Assembly (NCBI GenBank): GCA_043798995.1
Contig: JAZDOD010000009.1
Location: forward strand, 14,015-78,014
Length of the DNA stretch: 64,000 nucleotides
Direction of reading: 5' to 3'
Source: a bacterium
Lineage (GTDB): Bacteria > Patescibacteriota > Patescibacteriia > JAACEG01 > JAGUWE01
Under the pieces are notes generated by a model. The model made no database searches, had not been told where the DNA came from, and saw only the letters and a list, made by a program, of their open reading frames with translations. How positions within the stretch are numbered: the first letter of the stretch is position 1; every line of letters begins with the position of its first letter. Position numbers and translations under genes: made by a program. Of this stretch, positions 7,000-19,043 are shown piece after piece.

Positions 7000-7158
7000 A
7001 TGTTTATGGGATTTTTTTTCTTCTTTTTAGGTATTTTTTCCTTTTCCCAGGATCCTAATTTGCATTTTTATACCATTTTCTTCTTCCTTTTGGCAATTAT
7101 GTTTTTCCTAAACAGAGAAGATCACCACAGCGCTTCCGCCGCCGATGACGAATTTTAG
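7000..7158 (+). CDS. small hydrophobic peptide (52 aa) with an acidic C-tail, hypothetical
   Basis: Strong SD aaaaaggagggg 6 nt upstream of the ATG. Sequence MFMGFFFFFLGIFSFSQDPNLHFYTIFFFLLAIMFFLNREDHHSASAADDEF. Followed by a terminator hairpin. Below the 60-aa cutoff of the ORF track. Confidence 0.3.
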   Translation: MFMGFFFFFLGIFSFSQDPNLHFYTIFFFLLAIMFFLNREDHHSASAADDEF

Positions 7159-11985: not shown

Positions 11986-13746
11986 TTACACCTCAATCAC
12001 CACCGGCAAAATCATTGGCCGGCGCTGGGTTTTGGAGTATAAGAACTGGCCGATGGAATCGCGGAGCGTGCTTCTGATATAGGCCCAGTTAATCGGAGTT
12101 TCTTTAGTTTTCTGGGCAATAATTTGCTTGACCTTGCGTTTGGTCTGGGCCAAAAGCTCGCCCGATTCTTTCATATAAACAAAGCCGCGCGAAATTATAT
12201 CCGGATCTTGGATTATTTTGCCGGTTTTGCTGTCAATAATGACAATAATAGTAAACATACCGTCTTTGGACATCATCTGGCGATCGCGCAACACTACCTG
12301 CCCGACATCACCGATGCCCAAGCCGTCAACCATAATGTAATTGGTCGGGGCGCGCTTGTCGGTCAGCCGGATATTTTTGGCCGTTACTTCTACTATCTGG
12401 CCATTATCCGGAATGACAATGTTTTTTTCCGGCACGCCGACTGTCTGGGCTAATTCGGCATGGAGCTTTAACATATAATAATTGCCGTGGATAGGAATAA
12501 AAAAAGTAGGCCGGACTAAATTAATCATCATTTTTAAATCCTCAACCTGGGCATGGCCGCCGGCGTGGACATCCATCATCTGGTAATGAATAATTTTGGC
12601 GCCGTGGCGGCTTAAAGTATCTTTAACATGCTGGACGGTGCGTTCATTGCCCGGAATAACCGAGGAAGAAAAGATAACCGTATCGCCGGCTTTAATGCGG
12701 ATAAAGCGATGCTCTTTATTAACAATGCGCATCAAGACGGCCCGGTCTTCGCCCTGGGCGCCGGTGCAGAGCACTAAAATTTTATTGTCCGGCCAGTCGC
12801 GGAGTCGTTCAATATTAATAAAGGTGTCTTTTTTAACCTTAAGATAGCCCAAGTTGCGGGCGATTTCCACATTGGTTTTCATGCTATAACCGTCAACCAC
12901 GACTTTACGATGGTATTTTTCAGCCAGATAAATCAATTCCTGGAGGCGCGAAATTAAAGAAGAGAAAGTCGCGGCAATGATGCGGCCCTCGGCATTTTTG
13001 AAAATATCATCCAAAGTATCCTGAATGGTTTTCTCCGAAATTGAATAGCCGGGTGTATCAGCATCGGTTGAATCGGACATTAAAAGAAGCACGCCGCGGG
13101 CGCCAAGCTGGGCCAGATGAGCAATGTCAGCCGGTTCGTCGCCCACCGGGCTGTGGTCAAATTTAAAGTCGCCGGTATAAATAACGGTGCCGACCGGCGT
13201 ATGCAAAGCTATGCCCAAACTATCCGGAATATTGTGATTGAGGCGAAAAAATTCAGCTTCAAAGCAGCCAAGGCGCACACGATCTTTCTTTTTAACTATA
13301 TTAAGATTAAGATGAGTACCGTTGGGATAATCTTCCTGGCGTTTTTTAATAATAGCCGCCGTCAGCGCCGCGGTATAAATCGGCGGATTGCCGATTTTCG
13401 GCATAATATGGGGGATAGCGCCGATATGATCATAGTGGCCGTGGGTGATAATGACGCCGCGGATGTTTTTGGTTTTTTCCTGAAGATAGGCGGCGTTGGG
13501 AATAATATAATCAATGCCCGGCATATCTTCTTCCGGAAACTGCAAACCCATATCAATAACTATAATATCCGAGTCATACTCAAAAACGGTCATATTTCGA
13601 CCCACTTCCTCCAAACCGCCTAAAGGAATAATTTTTAAAGTATCCTCTGCCGGATGGCTTAAACCCCGATCGATCCTTTGGATTCTGCGAGGCGAACGGT
13701 AATAAGACCTGCGAGTTGTTGATTTTTTGTGTAAAGTTTCAATCAT
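11986..13746 (-). CDS. rnj: ribonuclease J (metallo-beta-lactamase / beta-CASP RNase)
   Basis: 586 aa. HGHYDHIG metallo-beta-lactamase motif, beta-CASP region and RNase J C-terminal domain. N-terminal R/S-rich extension. Confidence 0.85.
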   Translation of the reverse strand: MIETLHKKSTTRRSYYRSPRRIQRIDRGLSHPAEDTLKIIPLGGLEEVGRNMTVFEYDSDIIVIDMGLQFPEEDMPGIDYIIPNAAYLQEKTKNIRGVIITHGHYDHIGAIPHIMPKIGNPPIYTAALTAAIIKKRQEDYPNGTHLNLNIVKKKDRVRLGCFEAEFFRLNHNIPDSLGIALHTPVGTVIYTGDFKFDHSPVGDEPADIAHLAQLGARGVLLLMSDSTDADTPGYSISEKTIQDTLDDIFKNAEGRIIAATFSSLISRLQELIYLAEKYHRKVVVDGYSMKTNVEIARNLGYLKVKKDTFINIERLRDWPDNKILVLCTGAQGEDRAVLMRIVNKEHRFIRIKAGDTVIFSSSVIPGNERTVQHVKDTLSRHGAKIIHYQMMDVHAGGHAQVEDLKMMINLVRPTFFIPIHGNYYMLKLHAELAQTVGVPEKNIVIPDNGQIVEVTAKNIRLTDKRAPTNYIMVDGLGIGDVGQVVLRDRQMMSKDGMFTIIVIIDSKTGKIIQDPDIISRGFVYMKESGELLAQTKRKVKQIIAQKTKETPINWAYIRSTLRDSIGQFLYSKTQRRPMILPVVIEV

Positions 13747-13834
13747 AAAGTATTAAATTAATTTTTAATTTTTAAATAAATTTCAATTTTTAATGTCAAA
13801 TTAATAAATATTTGCCTTGCACTAAATTTATTTG

Positions 13835-13916
13835 TGCCGATGGTGGGAGTTGAACCCACAAGCCTTGCGGCATACGGCTCTGAACCGTACGTGTTTGCCA
13901 ATTTCACCACATCGGC
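13835..13916 (-). tRNA. tRNA-Leu (anticodon CAG), class II with long variable arm
   Basis: Folded by hand from the reverse complement. Acceptor GCCGATG/CATCGGC plus discriminator A. Anticodon loop UUCAGAG. Variable stem-loop GCC-GCAA-GGC. T arm GTGGG-TTCAACT-CCCAC. Confidence 0.8.
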
Positions 13917-14018
13917 GCGGGCCAGGTCTACCAGGCCTGCCCCGTACCTTTCCGCCAGCCGGCGGATCTGGTGCGGGGTTCCACCACTCGCCCAAAATTA
14001 AAAACAAGAAAAAAGTTG
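13917..14018 (-). other. GC-rich (~60%) structured spacer between the two tRNA-Leu genes, possible small ncRNA or processing element
   Basis: Three hairpins can be drawn: UGGUG-N8-CACCA, CCGCC-GGCU-GGCGG, and a GGCC-rich stem. The GC content stands out from background, as for structured RNAs in low-GC genomes. No family assigned. Confidence 0.2.
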
Positions 14019-14277: not shown

Positions 14278-14625
14278 CTAAGAGATCTTTTCCTCTTTGA
14301 GTCGTTTAGGATTATCTCTTAAGAAGTAAAGTTTAGCACGTCTTGTTTTAAATTTTTTAACAAGTTCTATTTTAGTAATTGAAGGTAAATGCAAAGGGAA
14401 GATTTTTTCCACGCCCACGCCATAAGATTCCTTGCGGACAATCACGGTTTCCGAAAGGCCGCTGCCGCGGCGGGACAGAACCAGGCCCTCAAAGGCCTGA
14501 ATGCGCTCTTTTAATTCGCCTTTGGGGCTGAGTTCTTTAATTTTTTGATGGATTTTAACCAGCATGCCCGGCTGAATTTCAGTGGGTTTAATTATTTTTT
14601 TTTCCTTAGTTTTTACTTTAATCAT
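14278..14625 (-). CDS. rplS: 50S ribosomal protein L19
   Basis: 115 aa. [36 protein letters not shown] and RRAKLYFLR align with the L19 consensus along the whole length. Confidence 0.9.
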
Positions 14626-14702
14626 AAAATAAAGAATTACATTATTAACTATTATAGCGCATTATTGAGATTTTGTCAACGATTTGTATAATTAGAATAA
14701 AA

Positions 14703-14735
14703 AAAGCAGGTTTTTAGGCCTGCCGTTTTTGCTGT
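14703..14735 (-). terminator. rho-independent terminator (minus strand GCAGGCCUAAAAACCUGC + U7)
   Basis: Perfect stem followed by a U-tract on the minus strand. A near-identical copy lies at 14984-15012. Confidence 0.5.
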
Positions 14736-14742
14736 TTAATTC

Positions 14743-14910
14743 TCAGATTTTACTATTTTTTATTTCTCTCAATATTCTTTCTCCTCTTCTTTTTTCTTGT
14801 TCTTTAGATATACATTCATCCACATAAACTTTATGGAAAATAGCAGTTTGTAACTTATCACTCCAACAAACATCATATTCAATCCCATCTTCGTCAAATA
14901 ATTTAACCAT
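14743..14910 (-). CDS. small hypothetical protein (55 aa)
   Basis: MVKLFDEDGIEYDVCWSDKLQTAIFHKVYVDECISKEQEKRRGERILREIKNSKI. Preceded by a G9 homopolymer (plus-strand C9 at 14913-14921) and followed by a terminator. Below the ORF-track size cutoff. Confidence 0.3.
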   Translation of the reverse strand: MVKLFDEDGIEYDVCWSDKLQTAIFHKVYVDECISKEQEKRRGERILREIKNSKI

Positions 14911-14983
14911 CGCCCCCCCCCTTTTTTAAAAAAAATTACCATTTGCTTTTATTTTAAATCTTTGCAAAAAATTTTGCAAGAAA

Positions 14984-15012
14984 AAAGCAGGTTTTTGGGG
15001 CCTGCTTTGCTG
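14984..15012 (-). terminator. rho-independent terminator (second copy)
   Basis: Minus strand reads GCAGGCCCCAAAAACCUGC followed by UUUUUU. Confidence 0.45.
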
Positions 15013-15026
15013 ATTAAAAATTTTAC

Positions 15027-15221
15027 TTAAATTGCCATAACCTTTTTTATAAGGTCTTCCGCTGTCATTTTTCTCAACTCTCCTGTTGAAAAACTAAGGG
15101 TTTTATTGGGTGATGAACAAACCGAGCAACCATCTTGTGAATTTTCATCACGTATAAGATGTGCTTCTGATATCTCCAGGAGCGCTCCCTTTAAACGGAT
15201 TATCACTAAGTTAGATATCAT
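15027..15221 (-). CDS. small hypothetical protein (64 aa)
   Basis: Start chosen at the internal Met MISNLVIIRLKG..., which has a strong SD (GGAGGGG) 4 nt upstream. The upstream part of the track ORF overlaps the neighbouring gene out of frame. Confidence 0.35.
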   Translation of the reverse strand: MISNLVIIRLKGALLEISEAHLIRDENSQDGCSVCSSPNKTLSFSTGELRKMTAEDLIKKVMAI

Positions 15222-15237
15222 AGAACCCCTCCTTTTT

Positions 15238-15681
15238 TTAAAGGATATGCAAAGAATTTTTTGCTCGGATACGATTCCACTCCTCATTACCCATAATAAT
15301 AATGGGTAATCCCCAATATTTTTTTGCGTGTTTTGCAAAATATTCCCTTGCCTCCAACTCTGTGATTGTCCTCCCGTTCTCTGCCGATAGATACATATGA
15401 ACATGCAGATAAAACTCCGGGATAAGTACGCAAGGGCCGAGACCATGATTCTTGCCCCATTCTACCTCAAGCCAGTCAGGAATCGGTTTGCCATACCACC
15501 AAGGCACCACTTTTATTAATCCTCGCGCTGCACCCAGATTAATTCCTATGAAATATTCGCCACAATGGGGGCAGATGCTGTCTCGATGATAAACTTTTGG
15601 ACACAGATCAAAGTATCCATAACACTTTAAACACTGAACTCTTTTCACGCCGCCAAAATTACACTTATCTAAAGAACACAT
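15238..15681 (-). CDS. Cys-rich (double zinc-ribbon) hypothetical protein
   Basis: N-terminus C-x4-C...C-x2-C...C...C-x2-C (CSLDKCNFGGVKRVQCLKCYGYFDLCPKVYHRDSICPHCGEYF). C-terminal domain of unknown family. SD GGGAGGT. Codon usage is GC-shifted relative to its neighbours. Confidence 0.45.
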   Translation of the reverse strand: MCSLDKCNFGGVKRVQCLKCYGYFDLCPKVYHRDSICPHCGEYFIGINLGAARGLIKVVPWWYGKPIPDWLEVEWGKNHGLGPCVLIPEFYLHVHMYLSAENGRTITELEAREYFAKHAKKYWGLPIIIMGNEEWNRIRAKNSLHIL

Positions 15682-15694
15682 CCTTTACCTCCCT

Positions 15695-15907
15695 TTAAAT
15701 TTGATATCTTAGATCAAGATACTTGATTAAAGATTCTTCTGTCGGTTTTCCGTTGCCGATTTTATAAGCGCCTATATAAAGTTCCTCCAACTTGACACCG
15801 TGTCTTTTTGCCACGCAACAGCATAATTGATATGCGCGTTTAGAGATTTTAAATTTTATTAAGATGCCTTTCCATTCAAAAGAGACTTTAATTTTATTCT
15901 TACCCAT
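15695..15907 (-). CDS. small basic protein, possible ribbon-helix-helix DNA binder
   Basis: 70 aa. FKISKRAYQLCCCVAKRHGVKLEELYIGAYKIG fits a beta-alpha-alpha pattern. SD GGGAGGGT. The assignment is speculative. Confidence 0.35.
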   Translation of the reverse strand: MGKNKIKVSFEWKGILIKFKISKRAYQLCCCVAKRHGVKLEELYIGAYKIGNGKPTEESLIKYLDLRYQI

Positions 15908-16105
15908 TTACCCTCCCTTTCATTGTTTTTAAGTTTTGTCAAAGGGCCATTTTTTTATTCTTAGCAAAGTTTTAAACTTTTGTCAATCTAAAATATTTGC
16001 TTCTATTTCCCTTTTCTTTTATAATAATATATAATGTATATTAAGAAAAATAATAATTAAGAGTTTCTTAGGGACTCAAATTTTTGGTATTGTAAAATAT
16101 AATTT

Positions 16106-17959
16106 ATGCAGAATATAATCAAAAACTTTTTAATCATCTTTGTAACTTTTTTAGCCATATCTTTCGTTTTTAGTTTTTATTTTAATCCTCAAGAACAAAC
16201 CAAAGAAATCAGTTTAAGCGCTTTGGTTGAGCAGATTAATAATGAGCAGGTCAAACAAATAGAAATTTCGGGCAATAATTTAAATGTTACTTTAAACGAC
16301 AATACTAAAGAAAAAGCGGCTAAAGAACCGGAAGAGTCATTAAGTTCAACGCTGAAAAATTACGGCGTAGCGCCGGACAAACTTGTCAAACTTAACATTA
16401 TTAATAAAACCGAGTCGGGTTGGGAATTTTGGCTGGCTAATCTTTTGCCGATTGTTATTCCCTTTTTGCTGATCGCCGGTTTTATTTATTTTATGATGCG
16501 TCAGGCGCAGGGCGCTAACCGCCGGGCTTTGATGTTCGGCCAGTCGCAAGCCCGAGAAGTCAAGCCACAGGACAAAAAAACACAAACAACTTTTAAGGGC
16601 GTGGCTGGCGCTAAAGAAGCCAAAGAAGAGCTTTACGAAATTGTTGAGTTTTTAAAAGATCCGAAGAAATTTACTTCCATCGGCGCTAAAATTCCTAAAG
16701 GAGTTCTGCTTTTGGGGCCGCCCGGAGTTGGCAAGACACTTTTGGCGCGGGCTGTGGCCGGTGAAGCCAATGTGCCGTTTTTTCATATTTCCGGTTCGGA
16801 ATTTGTGGAAATGTTTGTTGGCGTTGGCGCGGCCCGGGCGCGCGATCTTTTCCAGCGGGCCAAAAAGAACGCGCCTTCAATTTTATTTATTGATGAAATT
16901 GATGCCGTCGGCCGTCGGCGAGGGGCAGGCTTGGGCGGTTCGCATGATGAACGGGAGCAAACCTTAAATCAGATTTTGGTTGAAATGGACGGCTTTGATC
17001 CGCATACCAATGTCATTGTCATTGCCGCCACTAACCGGCCGGATGTTTTGGATCCGGCGCTGCTTAGGCCCGGTCGTTTTGACCGCCGCATAGTTTTGGA
17101 CCTGCCGGACATTGCGGATCGCGAAGCAATTCTTAAAGTTCATGCCCAAAACAAACCCTTGGCGCCGGAAGTGAATCTTCGCCGGGTAGCTGAAAGAACG
17201 CCGGGTTTTTCCGGAGCCGATTTGGAAAATTTGTTAAATGAAGCCGCAATTTTAACAGCGCGGCGCAATAAAAAACAAATCAGCCAAGGCGAGATTTTTG
17301 AAAGTATTGAAAAAGTTCTCTTGGGTCCGGAGCGCAAAAGCCATATTTTATCCAAGCGCGAAAAAGAAATCATAGCAGTTCATGAAGCCGGGCATGCTTT
17401 GGTGGCGCATGAATTGCCTAACGCCGATCCGGTCCATAAAGTTTCGATTATTTCCCGTGGCCGGGCCGCTGGCTATACCTTAAAATTACCCTTAGAAGAC
17501 AAACATTTTCATACCAAAGCTGAATTTTTGGATGATTTGGCCGTGTTTTTAGCCGGCTATGCTGCGGAAAGAGAAATTTTTAAGGAAATTACTACCGGCG
17601 CAGCCAATGATTTAAAACAAGCCACGCAATTAGCCAAGAGATTAGTAACGGATTTTGGCATGAGCCAAAATATGCCGCCGCGGACTTTTGGCGAAAGGGA
17701 AGAATTGATTTTTTTGGGTCGGGAAATTACCGAACAGCGCGATTACAGCGAAAAAATCGCCGAACAAATTGATCAGGAAATCTCCCAGTTTATTAACATT
17801 GCCCTCACAACCGCCACCTCAGTTATCAAAAAGAAAAAAGGGAAACTGCTTGAAATTAAAAATTTATTAATGGAAAAAGAAACTCTTGAGCAGGAAGAAT
17901 TTGAATCTATCTTTAAAAAGAAAGAGAAGAAAGTTGAAGTTCAAATTAATATAAAATAA
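16106..17959 (+). CDS. ftsH: ATP-dependent zinc metalloprotease FtsH
   Basis: N-terminal TM pair. AAA core ([23 protein letters not shown], Walker B, SRH). HEAGHAL zinc-binding motif. C-terminal helical domain. Confidence 0.92.
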
Positions 17960-18014: not shown

Positions 18015-19043
18015 ATGACAAAAGAAAAACCTCTCTATCGCCAAACTCTAAGAGAGGCGCTGACTATTATTTGGCGGAATAAATTTTTGTGGTTCTTTGG
18101 GTTATTTGCCGCCATGGCGGGTAGTGTTGAGTACAATTTTTTAATTGAAGGTTTTTCACGTTCGTCGGGTGACAAACCATTGACCTTGGGATTTCTGGAT
18201 GTGGTCCAAGATGTGGCCAATACGGGCATTTTTCGTTTTGAAACTTTGGGTAATTTAAAACGGATTATGATTGAAAATCCGTTTTCTTTCTTTATGTCAG
18301 TTTTTATTTTTTTAGTTTTCCTGGGCATTGCCGCTTTTGTTATTTGGTTAATCGTTGTTTCTCAGGCAAGCCTGATTAGCGCCACCAGAAAGATTGAGCA
18401 AGGCGAGGTAGCCGATCTTCGCGAGGAGATAGAAAAAAACAGAAGGTCTTTTTGGCCTTTATTTATCCTTAATTTTATTAATAAATTTTTAACCGGGCTC
18501 CTTTTGGTTTTAGTTGGGGTAGTGGTTTTTGTTTCGGCAATTAAAGCTACGGTGATGACCCTGCTTTTATTTATTTTAGTTTTTGTTGTTTTTATTTCCC
18601 TTTCTTTGATTATTGCCTTTATCACTAAATACGCTATCTGTTTTGTGGTTTTAAAAAAGCAGGGTTGGTTTGAATCAATTAAATCAGCGGTTAATTTGTT
18701 TTTTGCCAATTGGGTTATAAGTTTAGAGATGGCTTTGATTTTGTTTGCGATTGATTTTGTTTTTGTCTTATTTTTTGCTATATCAACCCTTGTTTTAATG
18801 TTAGCTGTAGCAATGTTAATGATTTTAGCTGCCTTTTTAAGTCTTAAGATGACTTTTTGGGGAGTGGTAATTTTACCGGTCATTTTATTGATCATTTTAT
18901 TTTTAATTATCACCAGTGGTTTAACTGCTTTTCAATACTCTTCCTGGACCTTGCTTTTTATGAGGTTAGCCGGTAAAAAAACCGTTGTCAGCAAACTTGC
19001 TCGCTTAGCTTCCAATCTATCAAATAAAGTGATGGGCAGTTGA
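18015..19043 (+). CDS. polytopic membrane protein, hypothetical
   Basis: 342 aa with about eight TM helices. No conserved motif recognised. Confidence 0.45.
   Translation: MTKEKPLYRQTLREALTIIWRNKFLWFFGLFAAMAGSVEYNFLIEGFSRSSGDKPLTLGFLDVVQDVANTGIFRFETLGNLKRIMIENPFSFFMSVFIFLVFLGIAAFVIWLIVVSQASLISATRKIEQGEVADLREEIEKNRRSFWPLFILNFINKFLTGLLLVLVGVVVFVSAIKATVMTLLLFILVFVVFISLSLIIAFITKYAICFVVLKKQGWFESIKSAVNLFFANWVISLEMALILFAIDFVFVLFFAISTLVLMLAVAMLMILAAFLSLKMTFWGVVILPVILLIILFLIITSGLTAFQYSSWTLLFMRLAGKKTVVSKLARLASNLSNKVMGS

Follow-up and report, generated by a model that had tools for sequence, protein, structure and literature searches.

A probable strain-variable islet of small, moron-like expression cassettes between ftsH and rplS in a patescibacterial genome

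Bacteria of the candidate phyla radiation (CPR, Patescibacteria) have tiny genomes and many small proteins with no known role, and how they gain and lose genes is little understood. What, then, is a block of four small open reading frames doing between the conserved genes rplS and ftsH in a metagenome-assembled genome (MAG) of an uncultured member of this group, and how did it get there? The block lies in a 64,000-nt stretch of contig JAZDOD010000009.1 (assembly GCA_043798995.1), referred to below as the window. A first-pass annotation, made from the letters alone, had described it as an inserted module, possibly TA-like or a phage remnant. All four ORFs were recovered on the minus strand at the positions given there—that is, D, C, B, and A in ascending order—and are listed here with the neighboring features.

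14278-14625, minus strand: rplS (Ribosomal_L19 match, E 2e-30)
14651-14679, minus strand: rplS promoter, TTGACA-17-TATAAT (12 of 12 consensus matches)
14685-15993, minus strand: full extent of the islet, flanked by the divergently oriented promoters of ftsH and rplS; site empty in relatives L083 and L084
14699-14724, minus strand: terminal terminator T2, GGCAGG-CCTAAAAA-CCTGCTTTTTTT, common to every islet variant
14743-14910, minus strand: ORF D, 55 aa, annotated as V1892_02485; singleton with a host-like codon score (0.23)
14951-14979, minus strand: P2, putative weak promoter for ORF D, TTGCAA-17-TAAAAT (9 of 12 consensus matches only)
14981-15008, minus strand: internal terminator copy T1, AAAGCAGG-CCCCAAAAA-CCTGCTTTTTT
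15027-15221, minus strand: ORF C, 64 aa, of doubtful status as a gene; atypical codon score (0.021)
15238-15681, minus strand: ORF B, 147 aa; four-Cys zinc ribbon at the N terminus, alpha/beta domain at the C terminus
15695-15907, minus strand: ORF A, 70 aa, pI 9.7, annotated as V1892_02495; singleton with a host-like codon score (0.12)
15934-15942, minus strand: second copy of TTGACAAAA in the 5′ leader (repeat D5), conserved in relatives L001 and L002
15957-15986, minus strand: P1, predicted islet promoter, TTGACA-17-TAAGAA with an upstream TGn, from a promoter scan; conserved in L001 and L002
16106-17959, plus strand: ftsH (Peptidase_M41 and AAA matches)

The islet (about 1.3 kb; 1309 bp) is dense in translation signals. 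Four units composed of a Shine–Dalgarno (SD) site, an ATG, and an ORF of at least 55 codons lie on one strand within it, and among 5000 dinucleotide-preserving shuffles of the island, 4888 contained no such unit, 112 contained one, and none contained two or more. The entire 64-kb window has only eight, the majority of its genes having no SD, and genome-wide an SD precedes about one gene in ten versus four of four in the islet, an atypical use of this signal. The claim that each ORF follows a near-consensus GGAGG held for ORF A (GGGAGGG, 4 nt 5′ of the ATG) and for ORFs B and C (GGAGG, 6 nt 5′ of the ATG in both), but not for ORF D, the candidate SD of which is a run of nine G at 14913-14921 followed by CG.

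The borders of the block are marked by repeats. With promoters called by consensus match only, P1 and the rplS promoter were found to form a diverged direct repeat (15962-15986 vs 14655-14679; 72% identical, spaced 1307 nt apart), and the right-hand junction of the islet lies at the −35 box of the latter; three of the five copies of TTGACAAAA in the window are at the islet. The two near-identical terminators reported earlier are indeed present and 95% identical over 19 nt, with modest hairpin energies (−10.2 and −10.6 kcal/mol; weak z scores of −1.5 and −2.6), and the terminator scan detected only T2 because the loop of T1 is 9 nt long. An alignment of both copies with those of L001, L002, and L086 showed that the same terminator ends all variants. 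The terminators are 281 nt apart and the SD regions of ORFs C and D 311 nt apart, and all repeats at the module borders are only 14-25 nt long. Two other candidate structures were rejected: a 12-nt perfect inverted repeat (14694-14705 and 15950-15961), considered as transposon-like ends, is low-complexity A/T of a kind common in the region, and the terminators, considered as attC-like sites, lack the length of such sites and finish in a U-tract. A search of Rfam at E ≤ 1 across 13.5-16.5 kb returned two tRNAs and nothing else.

Comparison of the rplS–ftsH interval across relatives, which the first-pass annotation had proposed, showed the block to be present, absent, or differently filled. The relatives are short metagenome contigs (0.9-3 kb), each standing for one "strain". 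Two of them, L083 (JGI 3300032173) and L084 (Logan SRR9616616), with flanks 90-94% identical to the window, align to positions 17285-15994 and then pass straight to 14684-14279, so that 15994 is joined exactly to 14684; loss of the block by an exact deletion between the two TTGACAAAA promoters would explain such a junction just as well as a site that was never filled. At least five different contents occupy this one site among seven contigs, with the core flanks 90-96% identical overall: A-B-C-T-D-T in the window; ORF B and the terminator in L086, the 5′ end of which, including the promoter, is cut off the contig; ORF B, a broken ORF C (psiC), and the terminator in L002; a frameshifted ORF B, an unrelated 72-aa ORF, and the terminator in L001; and an unrelated upstream gene in L085. 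ORF A DNA is absent from both L001 and L002, where the common leader runs directly into ORF B. When ORFs A, C, and D and the 72-aa ORF of L001 were searched by tblastn against 99 fetched loci, the sole match was ORF C in L002, and a scan of genome contigs with L19 revealed no close relative (best identity, 65%). The block thus shows presence/absence polymorphism, several alternative contents, and a history distinct from that of its flanks, all of which characterize an accessory islet. In view of the empty sites, and with no protein matching a housekeeping family, the description as a module inserted between two conserved genes stands. The outcome that would have spoken against it, namely conservation of the ORFs across the whole lineage together with matches to housekeeping families, was not found; sites are empty, no Pfam or NCBIfam family was matched, and in a set of 5.8 billion proteins those of ORFs A and D are both singletons.

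ORF B is a real, constrained coding gene, with dN/dS between 0.12 and 0.28 in every comparison. Its synonymous divergence (dS 0.53-1.55) contrasts with that of rplS (0.03-0.15 in the island-bearing strains) and ftsH (0.15) and, where the same contigs carry both, is 4-14 times that of the flanks; the B alleles may therefore be older than the flanks, although the higher dS could partly reflect a codon bias weaker than that of rplS. More detailed comparison of the B alleles of L001 and L002 showed them to be essentially identical over codons 1-70 (dS 0.025) and far apart over codons 71-147 (dS 1.35), a recombination mosaic. The codon usage of the gene had been called GC-shifted; its GC content is higher than that of the rest of the island (0.42 vs about 0.30) but ordinary beside the core genes of the window, and what is atypical is its codon usage, ORFs B and C both scoring among the lowest 2-3% of segments from true genes. 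With respect to ORF C, its standing as a gene is doubtful: it is missing from the NCBI annotation (the numbering of the locus tags passes over it, and the collection does not contain its sequence), has ATA in place of ATG and an 8-nt deletion in L002, and gives a dN/dS of 0.32 over 48 codons. A 139-aa ORF in the frame of ORF C (15027-15446), overlapping the 3′ half of ORF B, was also considered; its codon score is −0.08, and it is therefore not coding.

Across the ORF B family, four ribbon cysteines are invariant (C17, C20, C37, and C40; CxxC...CPxC), forming two conserved CxxC knuckles on a beta-ribbon, as in four-Cys zinc ribbons. C7 and C27 are kept in most members, and C2 and other extra cysteines are not; a second CxxC pair is absent. 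The "double zinc ribbon" described earlier is thus reduced to one, there being no second complete conserved ligand set. The remainder, some 90 residues including VPWWYG, IPxFYLxVH, and W135, is a second conserved domain for which no match was obtained. A fold search with the AF2 model (pLDDT 81.7) returned no significant match, and a sequence search of the PDB returned only sub-threshold zinc ribbons with the B profile and no matches with ORFs A, C, and D. No credible match of A-D to any known family was obtained in Pfam, PHROGs, NCBIfam, or PADLOC, and no function emerged for the four proteins: they match nothing in Pfam or NCBIfam, and ORF B matches no known fold significantly. Apart from the four cysteines and one Arg, the invariant residues are hydrophobic, aromatic, or structural ones (Pro, Gly), a pattern suggestive of zinc-dependent binding, not of catalysis.

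The family is very rare, comprising eight clusters among 1.84 billion representatives. Besides the cluster of the window, six were recovered at E < 1e-6; three of these are unassigned ENA or Logan contigs, and all taxon-assigned ones are Patescibacteria, to which, together with unassigned environmental contigs, the family thus far appears confined. A metagenome scan with the B profile yielded four loci. The family members are flanked by different housekeeping genes in different loci, and in six other CPR loci the homologue forms a unit of its own from a promoter-like sequence, a strong SD, and the gene, with a terminator hairpin in all five that could be read downstream (promoter, SD, and terminator motifs in L087, L089, L095, L096, and L098; promoter and SD in L100). 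In Moranbacteria the homologue lies next to cysS, stably so in 18 contigs, and that of L100 also borders cysS; the family is therefore not variable everywhere. No report on the family or on the ftsH–rplS islet was found in the literature.

Overall, the block is probably a strain-variable accessory islet, situated at a recombination hotspot between ftsH and rplS and made up of cassettes that resemble morons. The sequence motifs of the window (P1, P2, the SD sites, T1, and T2) are those expected of autonomous cassettes of this kind, and the gap separating the promoters of ftsH and rplS, which point away from each other, would be a "safe" one in which small self-contained expression cassettes could have been gained by nested additions. 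In this reading the founding cassette consists of promoter, SD, ORF B, and terminator, as in L086 (where the promoter is cut off) and the six other CPR loci (terminator seen in five). Further pieces came or were exchanged later: ORF C, or the unrelated 72-aa ORF, between ORF B and the terminator; ORF A between the leader and ORF B, with duplicated SD sequence on its flanks; and a second unit, P2-D-T2, within the bounds of the duplicated terminator. In the resulting islet, transcription from P1 would run through A-B-C up to T1 and that from P2 through ORF D up to T2, with T2 insulating the rplS promoter. Turnover would proceed by homologous recombination in the conserved flanks and also through the short repeated motifs, namely the TTGACAAAA −35 boxes, the SD sites, and the terminator, and such turnover would account for the mosaic, highly diverged B alleles. 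With respect to the role of ORF B, one in conflict or host interaction best fits its patchy, hyper-diverged, presence/absence pattern, which is a guess held with low confidence.

An alternative origin of the block in a mobile element, such as a CPR phage, that integrated near tRNA-Leu and rplS and left a decayed remnant or a moron is unlikely. It would explain why the cassettes resemble morons in having promoter, SD, gene, and terminator, why the islet departs from the host in its SD use and, in ORFs B and C, in its codons, and why the adjacent tRNA-Leu(CAG) gene has been replaced, leaving a 16-nt remnant. The zinc ribbon of ORF B also has weak PHROG matches; however, nearly all of these are limited to residues 10-55 (best E 1e-4), a single one being C-terminal (E 0.005). 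No integrase or recombinase was found in or beside the islet, nor any phage structural or replication gene, nor att-like repeats except the promoter duplicates. A tblastn search of INPHARED with ORFs B, A, and D gave no relatives apart from a lone sub-threshold match to ORF D (E 0.1), IMG/VR holds no relatives of the B family, and in other CPR genomes the homologues of ORF B sit singly among housekeeping genes. The earlier suggestion of a phage remnant is therefore not supported.

A second possibility, rather improbable, goes further than an accessory islet: a recombinase-free cassette platform working by recombination between motifs, with ORF B as a CPR-specific, novel-fold conflict or host-interaction protein under balancing selection. 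If this were true, an existing expression unit would take up new small ORFan genes, a means for a reduced CPR genome to sample new genes, and the B alleles would be old and mosaic through having been kept by balancing selection. When the eight B-family members were run through PADLOC, the best match was that of a single member at E 0.016, which does not place them in a defense system.

Could ORF B instead be a lineage-specific housekeeping protein, for instance a zinc-ribbon factor accessory to RNA polymerase or the ribosome, co-regulated with rplS, the other ORFs being noise? The strong expression signals at ORF B and the stable neighborhood of cysS in Moranbacteria, found in L100 too, would fit, but ORF B is missing in close relatives with the same flanks, is frameshifted in L001, and occupies a different location in every lineage examined; moreover, the family is very rare, and the similarity to eS27 is below significance and extends over only about 45 residues. 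This reading is decidedly improbable.

There is very little likelihood of a small toxin–antitoxin (TA) or autoregulated module in which ORF A would act as an antitoxin or repressor of the RHH type, paired with ORF B (or C). ORF A is small and, as the first-pass annotation stated, basic; it lies directly upstream of ORF B in one operon, the 14-nt gap between them contains the SD of ORF B, and its segment ISKRAYQLCCCVAKRHGVKLEELY looks by eye like a strand-helix-Gly-helix pattern. Alignment by hhalign with sequences of Arc, Mnt, and CopG nevertheless gave a probability of 0.1%, so that the proposed RHH likeness is not supported. ORF B is present without ORF A in L001, L002, L087, L089-094, L095, L096, L098, and L100 and without ORF C in L086 and every distant locus; nine further loci have ORF B with none of A, C, or D, and there is therefore no obligate gene pair. 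With no conserved pairing and no match to a toxin or antitoxin family in Pfam, NCBIfam, or PADLOC, the "TA-like" suggestion is not supported.

Finally, a chimeric join within the MAG contig is the least credible explanation: ORFs A and D are known from this MAG only, which precludes confirmation of their insertion from an independent assembly, and short repeats at module borders can confuse assemblers, but these repeats (14-25 nt) are below typical final k-mers, the codon usage of both ORFs is host-like, and the independent Logan contigs L001 and L086 have the orders ftsH-P1-B...terminator-rplS and B-terminator-rplS, respectively.

Read as an accessory islet, the locus offers an example, at base-level resolution, of gene gain between two essential genes by nested cassette insertions. 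ORF B represents a rare new protein family, combining a zinc ribbon with an unmatched domain and having what appears to be its own expression unit in the loci read, so that studies of its structure and function would be reasonable. In all other respects, the locus is an ordinary accessory region.

Several known systems resemble the islet in part. Type II TA modules with an RHH antitoxin are likewise compact operons on accessory segments, with the gene for a small basic protein immediately preceding that for a larger one, but the A-B pairing is not conserved, neither protein matches a family, and ORF A showed no similarity to Arc, Mnt, or CopG. Four-Cys zinc-ribbon proteins (eS27/S27e, Rpo12/RpoP, and FmdB CxxC_CxxC_SSSS) resemble ORF B below significance (E 0.003-0.2), whereas ORF B carries the additional conserved domain of about 90 residues and its family was encountered in no source other than Patescibacteria and unassigned environmental contigs. 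Integron cassette arrays also line up small genes, ORFans for the most part, that all face the same way, and a hairpin recurs behind the cassettes. An attC site measures 57-141 bp and has R and L boxes. The islet hairpin, in contrast, is about 26 nt long, with a 5-7-bp stem and a U-tract, without R/L boxes, and would be a terminator; the cassettes have their own promoter and SD, and there is no adjacent intI, so that neither IntI nor attC is present at the islet.

Hotspots of horizontal gene transfer, reportedly described by Oliveira et al. in 2017, are chromosomal sites of accessory genes flanked by core genes. The islet is like them in its core flanks (90-96% identical), its at least five contents in seven contigs, and its mosaic alleles, apparently older than those flanks; it differs in being very small (1.3 kb), with genes of 55-147 aa only, in having no integrase or other mobile-element gene, and in residing in a reduced CPR genome. 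Phage morons are said by Hendrix and colleagues to be autonomous promoter-gene-terminator units inserted between conserved genes. The units of the islet, with a sigma-70-like promoter, a strong SD, and a predicted intrinsic terminator, similarly lie between two conserved genes that stay undisturbed, vary in presence among relatives, and are unlike the surrounding genes in composition. Unlike morons, they reside in a bacterial chromosome (ftsH/rplS) rather than a phage genome, with no phage homologues found, and they are nested, sharing common terminator and promoter motifs.

The interval between rplS and ftsH is a hypervariable site, occupied here by an islet of four small minus-strand ORFs that are all present as the first-pass annotation described them; its promoters and terminators are sequence predictions.

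Features of the rplS-ftsH interval (window positions)
14278-14625, minus: rplS (Ribosomal_L19 match, E 2e-30)
14679-14651: predicted rplS promoter
14699-14724: T2, terminal terminator after ORF D
14743-14910, minus: ORF D, 55 aa
14979-14951: P2, predicted weak promoter ahead of ORF D
14981-15008: T1, internal terminator after ORF C
15027-15221, minus: ORF C, 64 aa
15238-15681, minus: ORF B, 147 aa
15695-15907, minus: ORF A, 70 aa
15986-15957: P1, predicted islet promoter
16106-17959, plus: ftsH

A near-consensus GGAGG Shine-Dalgarno (SD) sequence, claimed for every ORF, was found for A, B, and C (4-6 nt before the ATG) but not for D, which instead has a nine-G homopolymer directly upstream of its ATG (14913-14921), a putative ribosome-binding site; the tract is prone to slippage, so phase variation or sequencing error could be at work. 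The twin terminators also hold up, with 95% identity over 19 nt at a spacing of 281 nt, and have modest hairpins (-10.2 and -10.6 kcal/mol). Four SD-ATG-ORF units, counted only at >=55 codons, lie on one strand of the island, and more than one such unit occurred in 0 of 5000 dinucleotide-preserving shuffles; the arrangement is far from chance. The whole 64-kb window holds only eight such units, and a strong SD precedes only about one in ten of its genes (18015, 32915, 43027, and 48436, plus the islet genes), most upstream regions being AT-rich and without an SD (e.g., 11986-13746, 16106, 25427, 28824, 35089). In the SD-less genes a TATAAT-like hexamer often lies within ~10 nt of the ATG, and such upstream regions suggest leaderless or non-SD initiation. 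That the islet differs from the remaining window in SD use is a new observation. Directly past ftsH, the strong-SD (AAGGAGG) gene at 18015-19043 (plus strand) encodes a 342-aa multi-pass membrane protein with no significant Pfam match. A very strong SD (AGGAGGGGTAACG-ATG) also precedes a 52-aa ORF between two larger genes (7000-7158, plus strand), the codon-usage score of which (-0.06) is not coding-like and which has no Pfam match.

Contigs of close relatives, each a single short metagenomic contig, were traced from the 90%-identity L19 cluster, with two more found via ORF B homologues, and were compared with the window by blastn.

Contents of the site in close relatives
L083 (JGI 3300032173): site empty; aligned to 17285-15994, then straight to 14684-14279
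L084 (Logan SRR9616616): site empty; junction identical to that of L083
L086 (Logan SRR22387926): B, terminator, rplS; the 5' end of the contig lies at codon 24 of B
L002 (Logan SRR22388041): P1, B, C-like sequence, terminator; ATA replaces the ATG of C, with an 8-nt deletion
L001 (Logan SRR22387928): ftsH, P1, B, 72-aa ORF unrelated to C or D, terminator, rplS, tRNAs; B is frameshifted by a 1-nt insertion
L085 (Logan SRR22388089): rplS (96% identical to that of the window) has an unrelated gene upstream

With the site empty in L083 and L084 and alternative contents elsewhere, the block is an insertion, as had been proposed, at a site holding several alternative contents. The empty sites place its bounds at 14685-15993, with both outer junctions at TTGACAAAA -35 boxes, and the islet and rplS promoters form a diverged direct repeat with a spacing of 1307 nt. 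In L001 and L002 the DNA of ORF A is cleanly missing, window position 15907 abutting 15696 and the shared leader running into the SD of B, and one and the same terminator closes every variant, regardless of the preceding gene. The islet modules are bounded by repeated regulatory motifs.

Other features were noted around the site. A perfect 12-nt inverted repeat (AGAATAAAAAAA / TTTTTTTATTCT; 14694-14705 and 15950-15961) lies 14-16 nt inward of each TTGACAAAA junction and is probably due to chance, given its low-complexity A/T composition and the many comparable pairs in the vicinity. In L001 (1695-1870) and L002 (815-963), ~140 additional nt with repeated AGAAACTTATAGAAA-like units separate the rplS promoter from the start of the gene; they are missing in the window, L083, and L086, and could be a leader/regulatory element or another small insertion. 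In L085 (1-460), a divergent gene that the window lacks (no Pfam match for the 91 aa seen) stands where ftsH or the islet is expected, representing either another hotspot variant or a rearrangement.

ORF B is certainly a gene. Its dN/dS is 0.12-0.28 in all pairwise comparisons of four alleles, leaving out one near-identical, not estimable segment and including the L001 sequence beyond the frameshift. Synonymous divergence is 0.53-1.55 for B, versus 0.03-0.15 for rplS (island-bearing strains) and 0.15 for ftsH. The B copies of L001 and L002 are a clear recombination mosaic, essentially identical over codons 1-70 (dS 0.025) and with a dS of 1.35 over codons 71-147. The B alleles are, in sum, mosaic and much older than their flanks. 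In L001 the 1-nt insertion (CATATG to CATAATG, 1200-1215) breaks B into two pieces of 103 and 55 aa; constraint persists downstream of the insertion (dN/dS ~0.12-0.14), so the frameshift either arose recently or stems from a misassembly. Codon-usage scores are host-gene-like for D (0.23) and A (0.12), and the scores for B (0.026) and for C (0.021) lie within the bottom 2-3% of true-gene segments. ORF C is doubtful as a gene, given its atypical codon usage, missing annotation in the NCBI metagenome-assembled genome (MAG), lost start codon in L002, and omega of 0.32 over 48 codons. A, B, D, L19, and FtsH have exact matches in that MAG (locus tags V1892_02485, 02490, 02495), where alone A and D are seen, neither having a homologue besides itself among 5.8 billion proteins.

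A complete HMMER search for ORF B relatives, run on 1.84 billion representatives, returned eight proteins at E<=0.001, namely six full-length relatives (131-156 aa), the frameshift-truncated L001 copy (103 aa), and a zinc-finger repeat protein with similarity confined to the ribbon. So far, the family is known only from Patescibacteria (CPR) genomes, Moranbacteria among the named taxa, and unassigned environmental contigs. The family alignment gives one zinc ribbon, rather than the double ribbon first read from the sequence, along with a C-terminal domain of ~90 residues, 16 invariant positions (M1, R14, C17, C20, C37, P38, C40, V59, W62, I87, P88, V94, L98, G103, F115, W135), and the motifs VPWWYG(R/K)PIP and IPxFYLxVH. 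An AF2 model built from this alignment (pLDDT 81.7) had no Foldseek match at E<0.1 in PDB and BFVD, and searches of Pfam, NCBIfam, PADLOC, and PHROGs gave sub-threshold matches only, nearly all to zinc ribbons. Since the invariant residues beyond the four Cys ligands include no recognisable catalytic motif, we infer that ORF B is a binding protein, not an enzyme.

In other CPR genomes, the B homologue is a solitary gene flanked by housekeeping genes: mreB and an AP endonuclease gene (L087, L096), dnaB and cysS (L089-094, stable across 18 contigs), dus and cysS (L100), or dprA and serS (L098). A predicted sigma-70-like promoter and an AGGAGG-type SD occur at every distant B locus, and a predicted intrinsic terminator directly follows the B stop in all five loci read downstream. 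The L089-L094 and L100 homologues, from two distant branches (~30% mutual identity), are each convergent with and directly beside cysS, the gene for the zinc enzyme cysteinyl-tRNA synthetase; the synteny may be inherited or coincidental. In L095 (800-5100), the homologue lies amid ~12 tiny unannotated ORFs (42-107 aa) between the PDT and NDK genes, with no significant match to PHROG (10 scanned) or Pfam (precomputed; two rescanned) and a lone sub-threshold match to EF-Tu domain-2; the run looks like a larger small-gene islet of the same kind.

The host is a poorly sampled CPR bacterium, since GTDB holds no close species representative (top L19 identity 65%, Patescibacteria among the best matches) and all named B relatives are Patescibacteria. 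Beyond rplS lie two tRNA-Leu genes and RNase J. The tRNA-Leu(CAG) region (13834-13993) differs from that of L001 and L083: of the gene found in those relatives, 16 nt from the 5' end (GGGCGAGTGGTGGAAC) persist at 13978-13993, followed by ~61 GC-rich nt and a different complete tRNA-Leu(CAG) at 13834-13916, which looks like a gene replacement or integration scar.

Most simply, the islet would have begun as a B cassette and then grown by nested additions, each flanked by a duplicated regulatory motif. P1 would drive A-B-C up to T1, and the weak P2 would drive D up to T2, which would shield the rplS promoter. The place between two divergent core promoters may act as a safe harbour, with exchange probably proceeding via homologous recombination in ftsH and rplS, and via recombination at short shared motifs. 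By analogy, presence/absence, old alleles, and fast turnover of neighbouring ORFans resemble phage-conflict or host-interaction loci, which is a guess.

Among known systems, the islet is not recognisable as a toxin-antitoxin-like module, as suggested in the first pass: B has no conserved partner gene across the examined loci, which speaks against any toxin-antitoxin or other multi-gene system. By available tests it is neither a prophage remnant, as had also been suggested (no B relatives were found in phage collections), nor a known defence system. An integron is dismissed, integrase and attC site both being absent. The locus, which encodes a member of an undescribed protein family, is an accessory islet, closest in architecture to a phage 'moron' and in population behaviour to a chromosomal hotspot islet.
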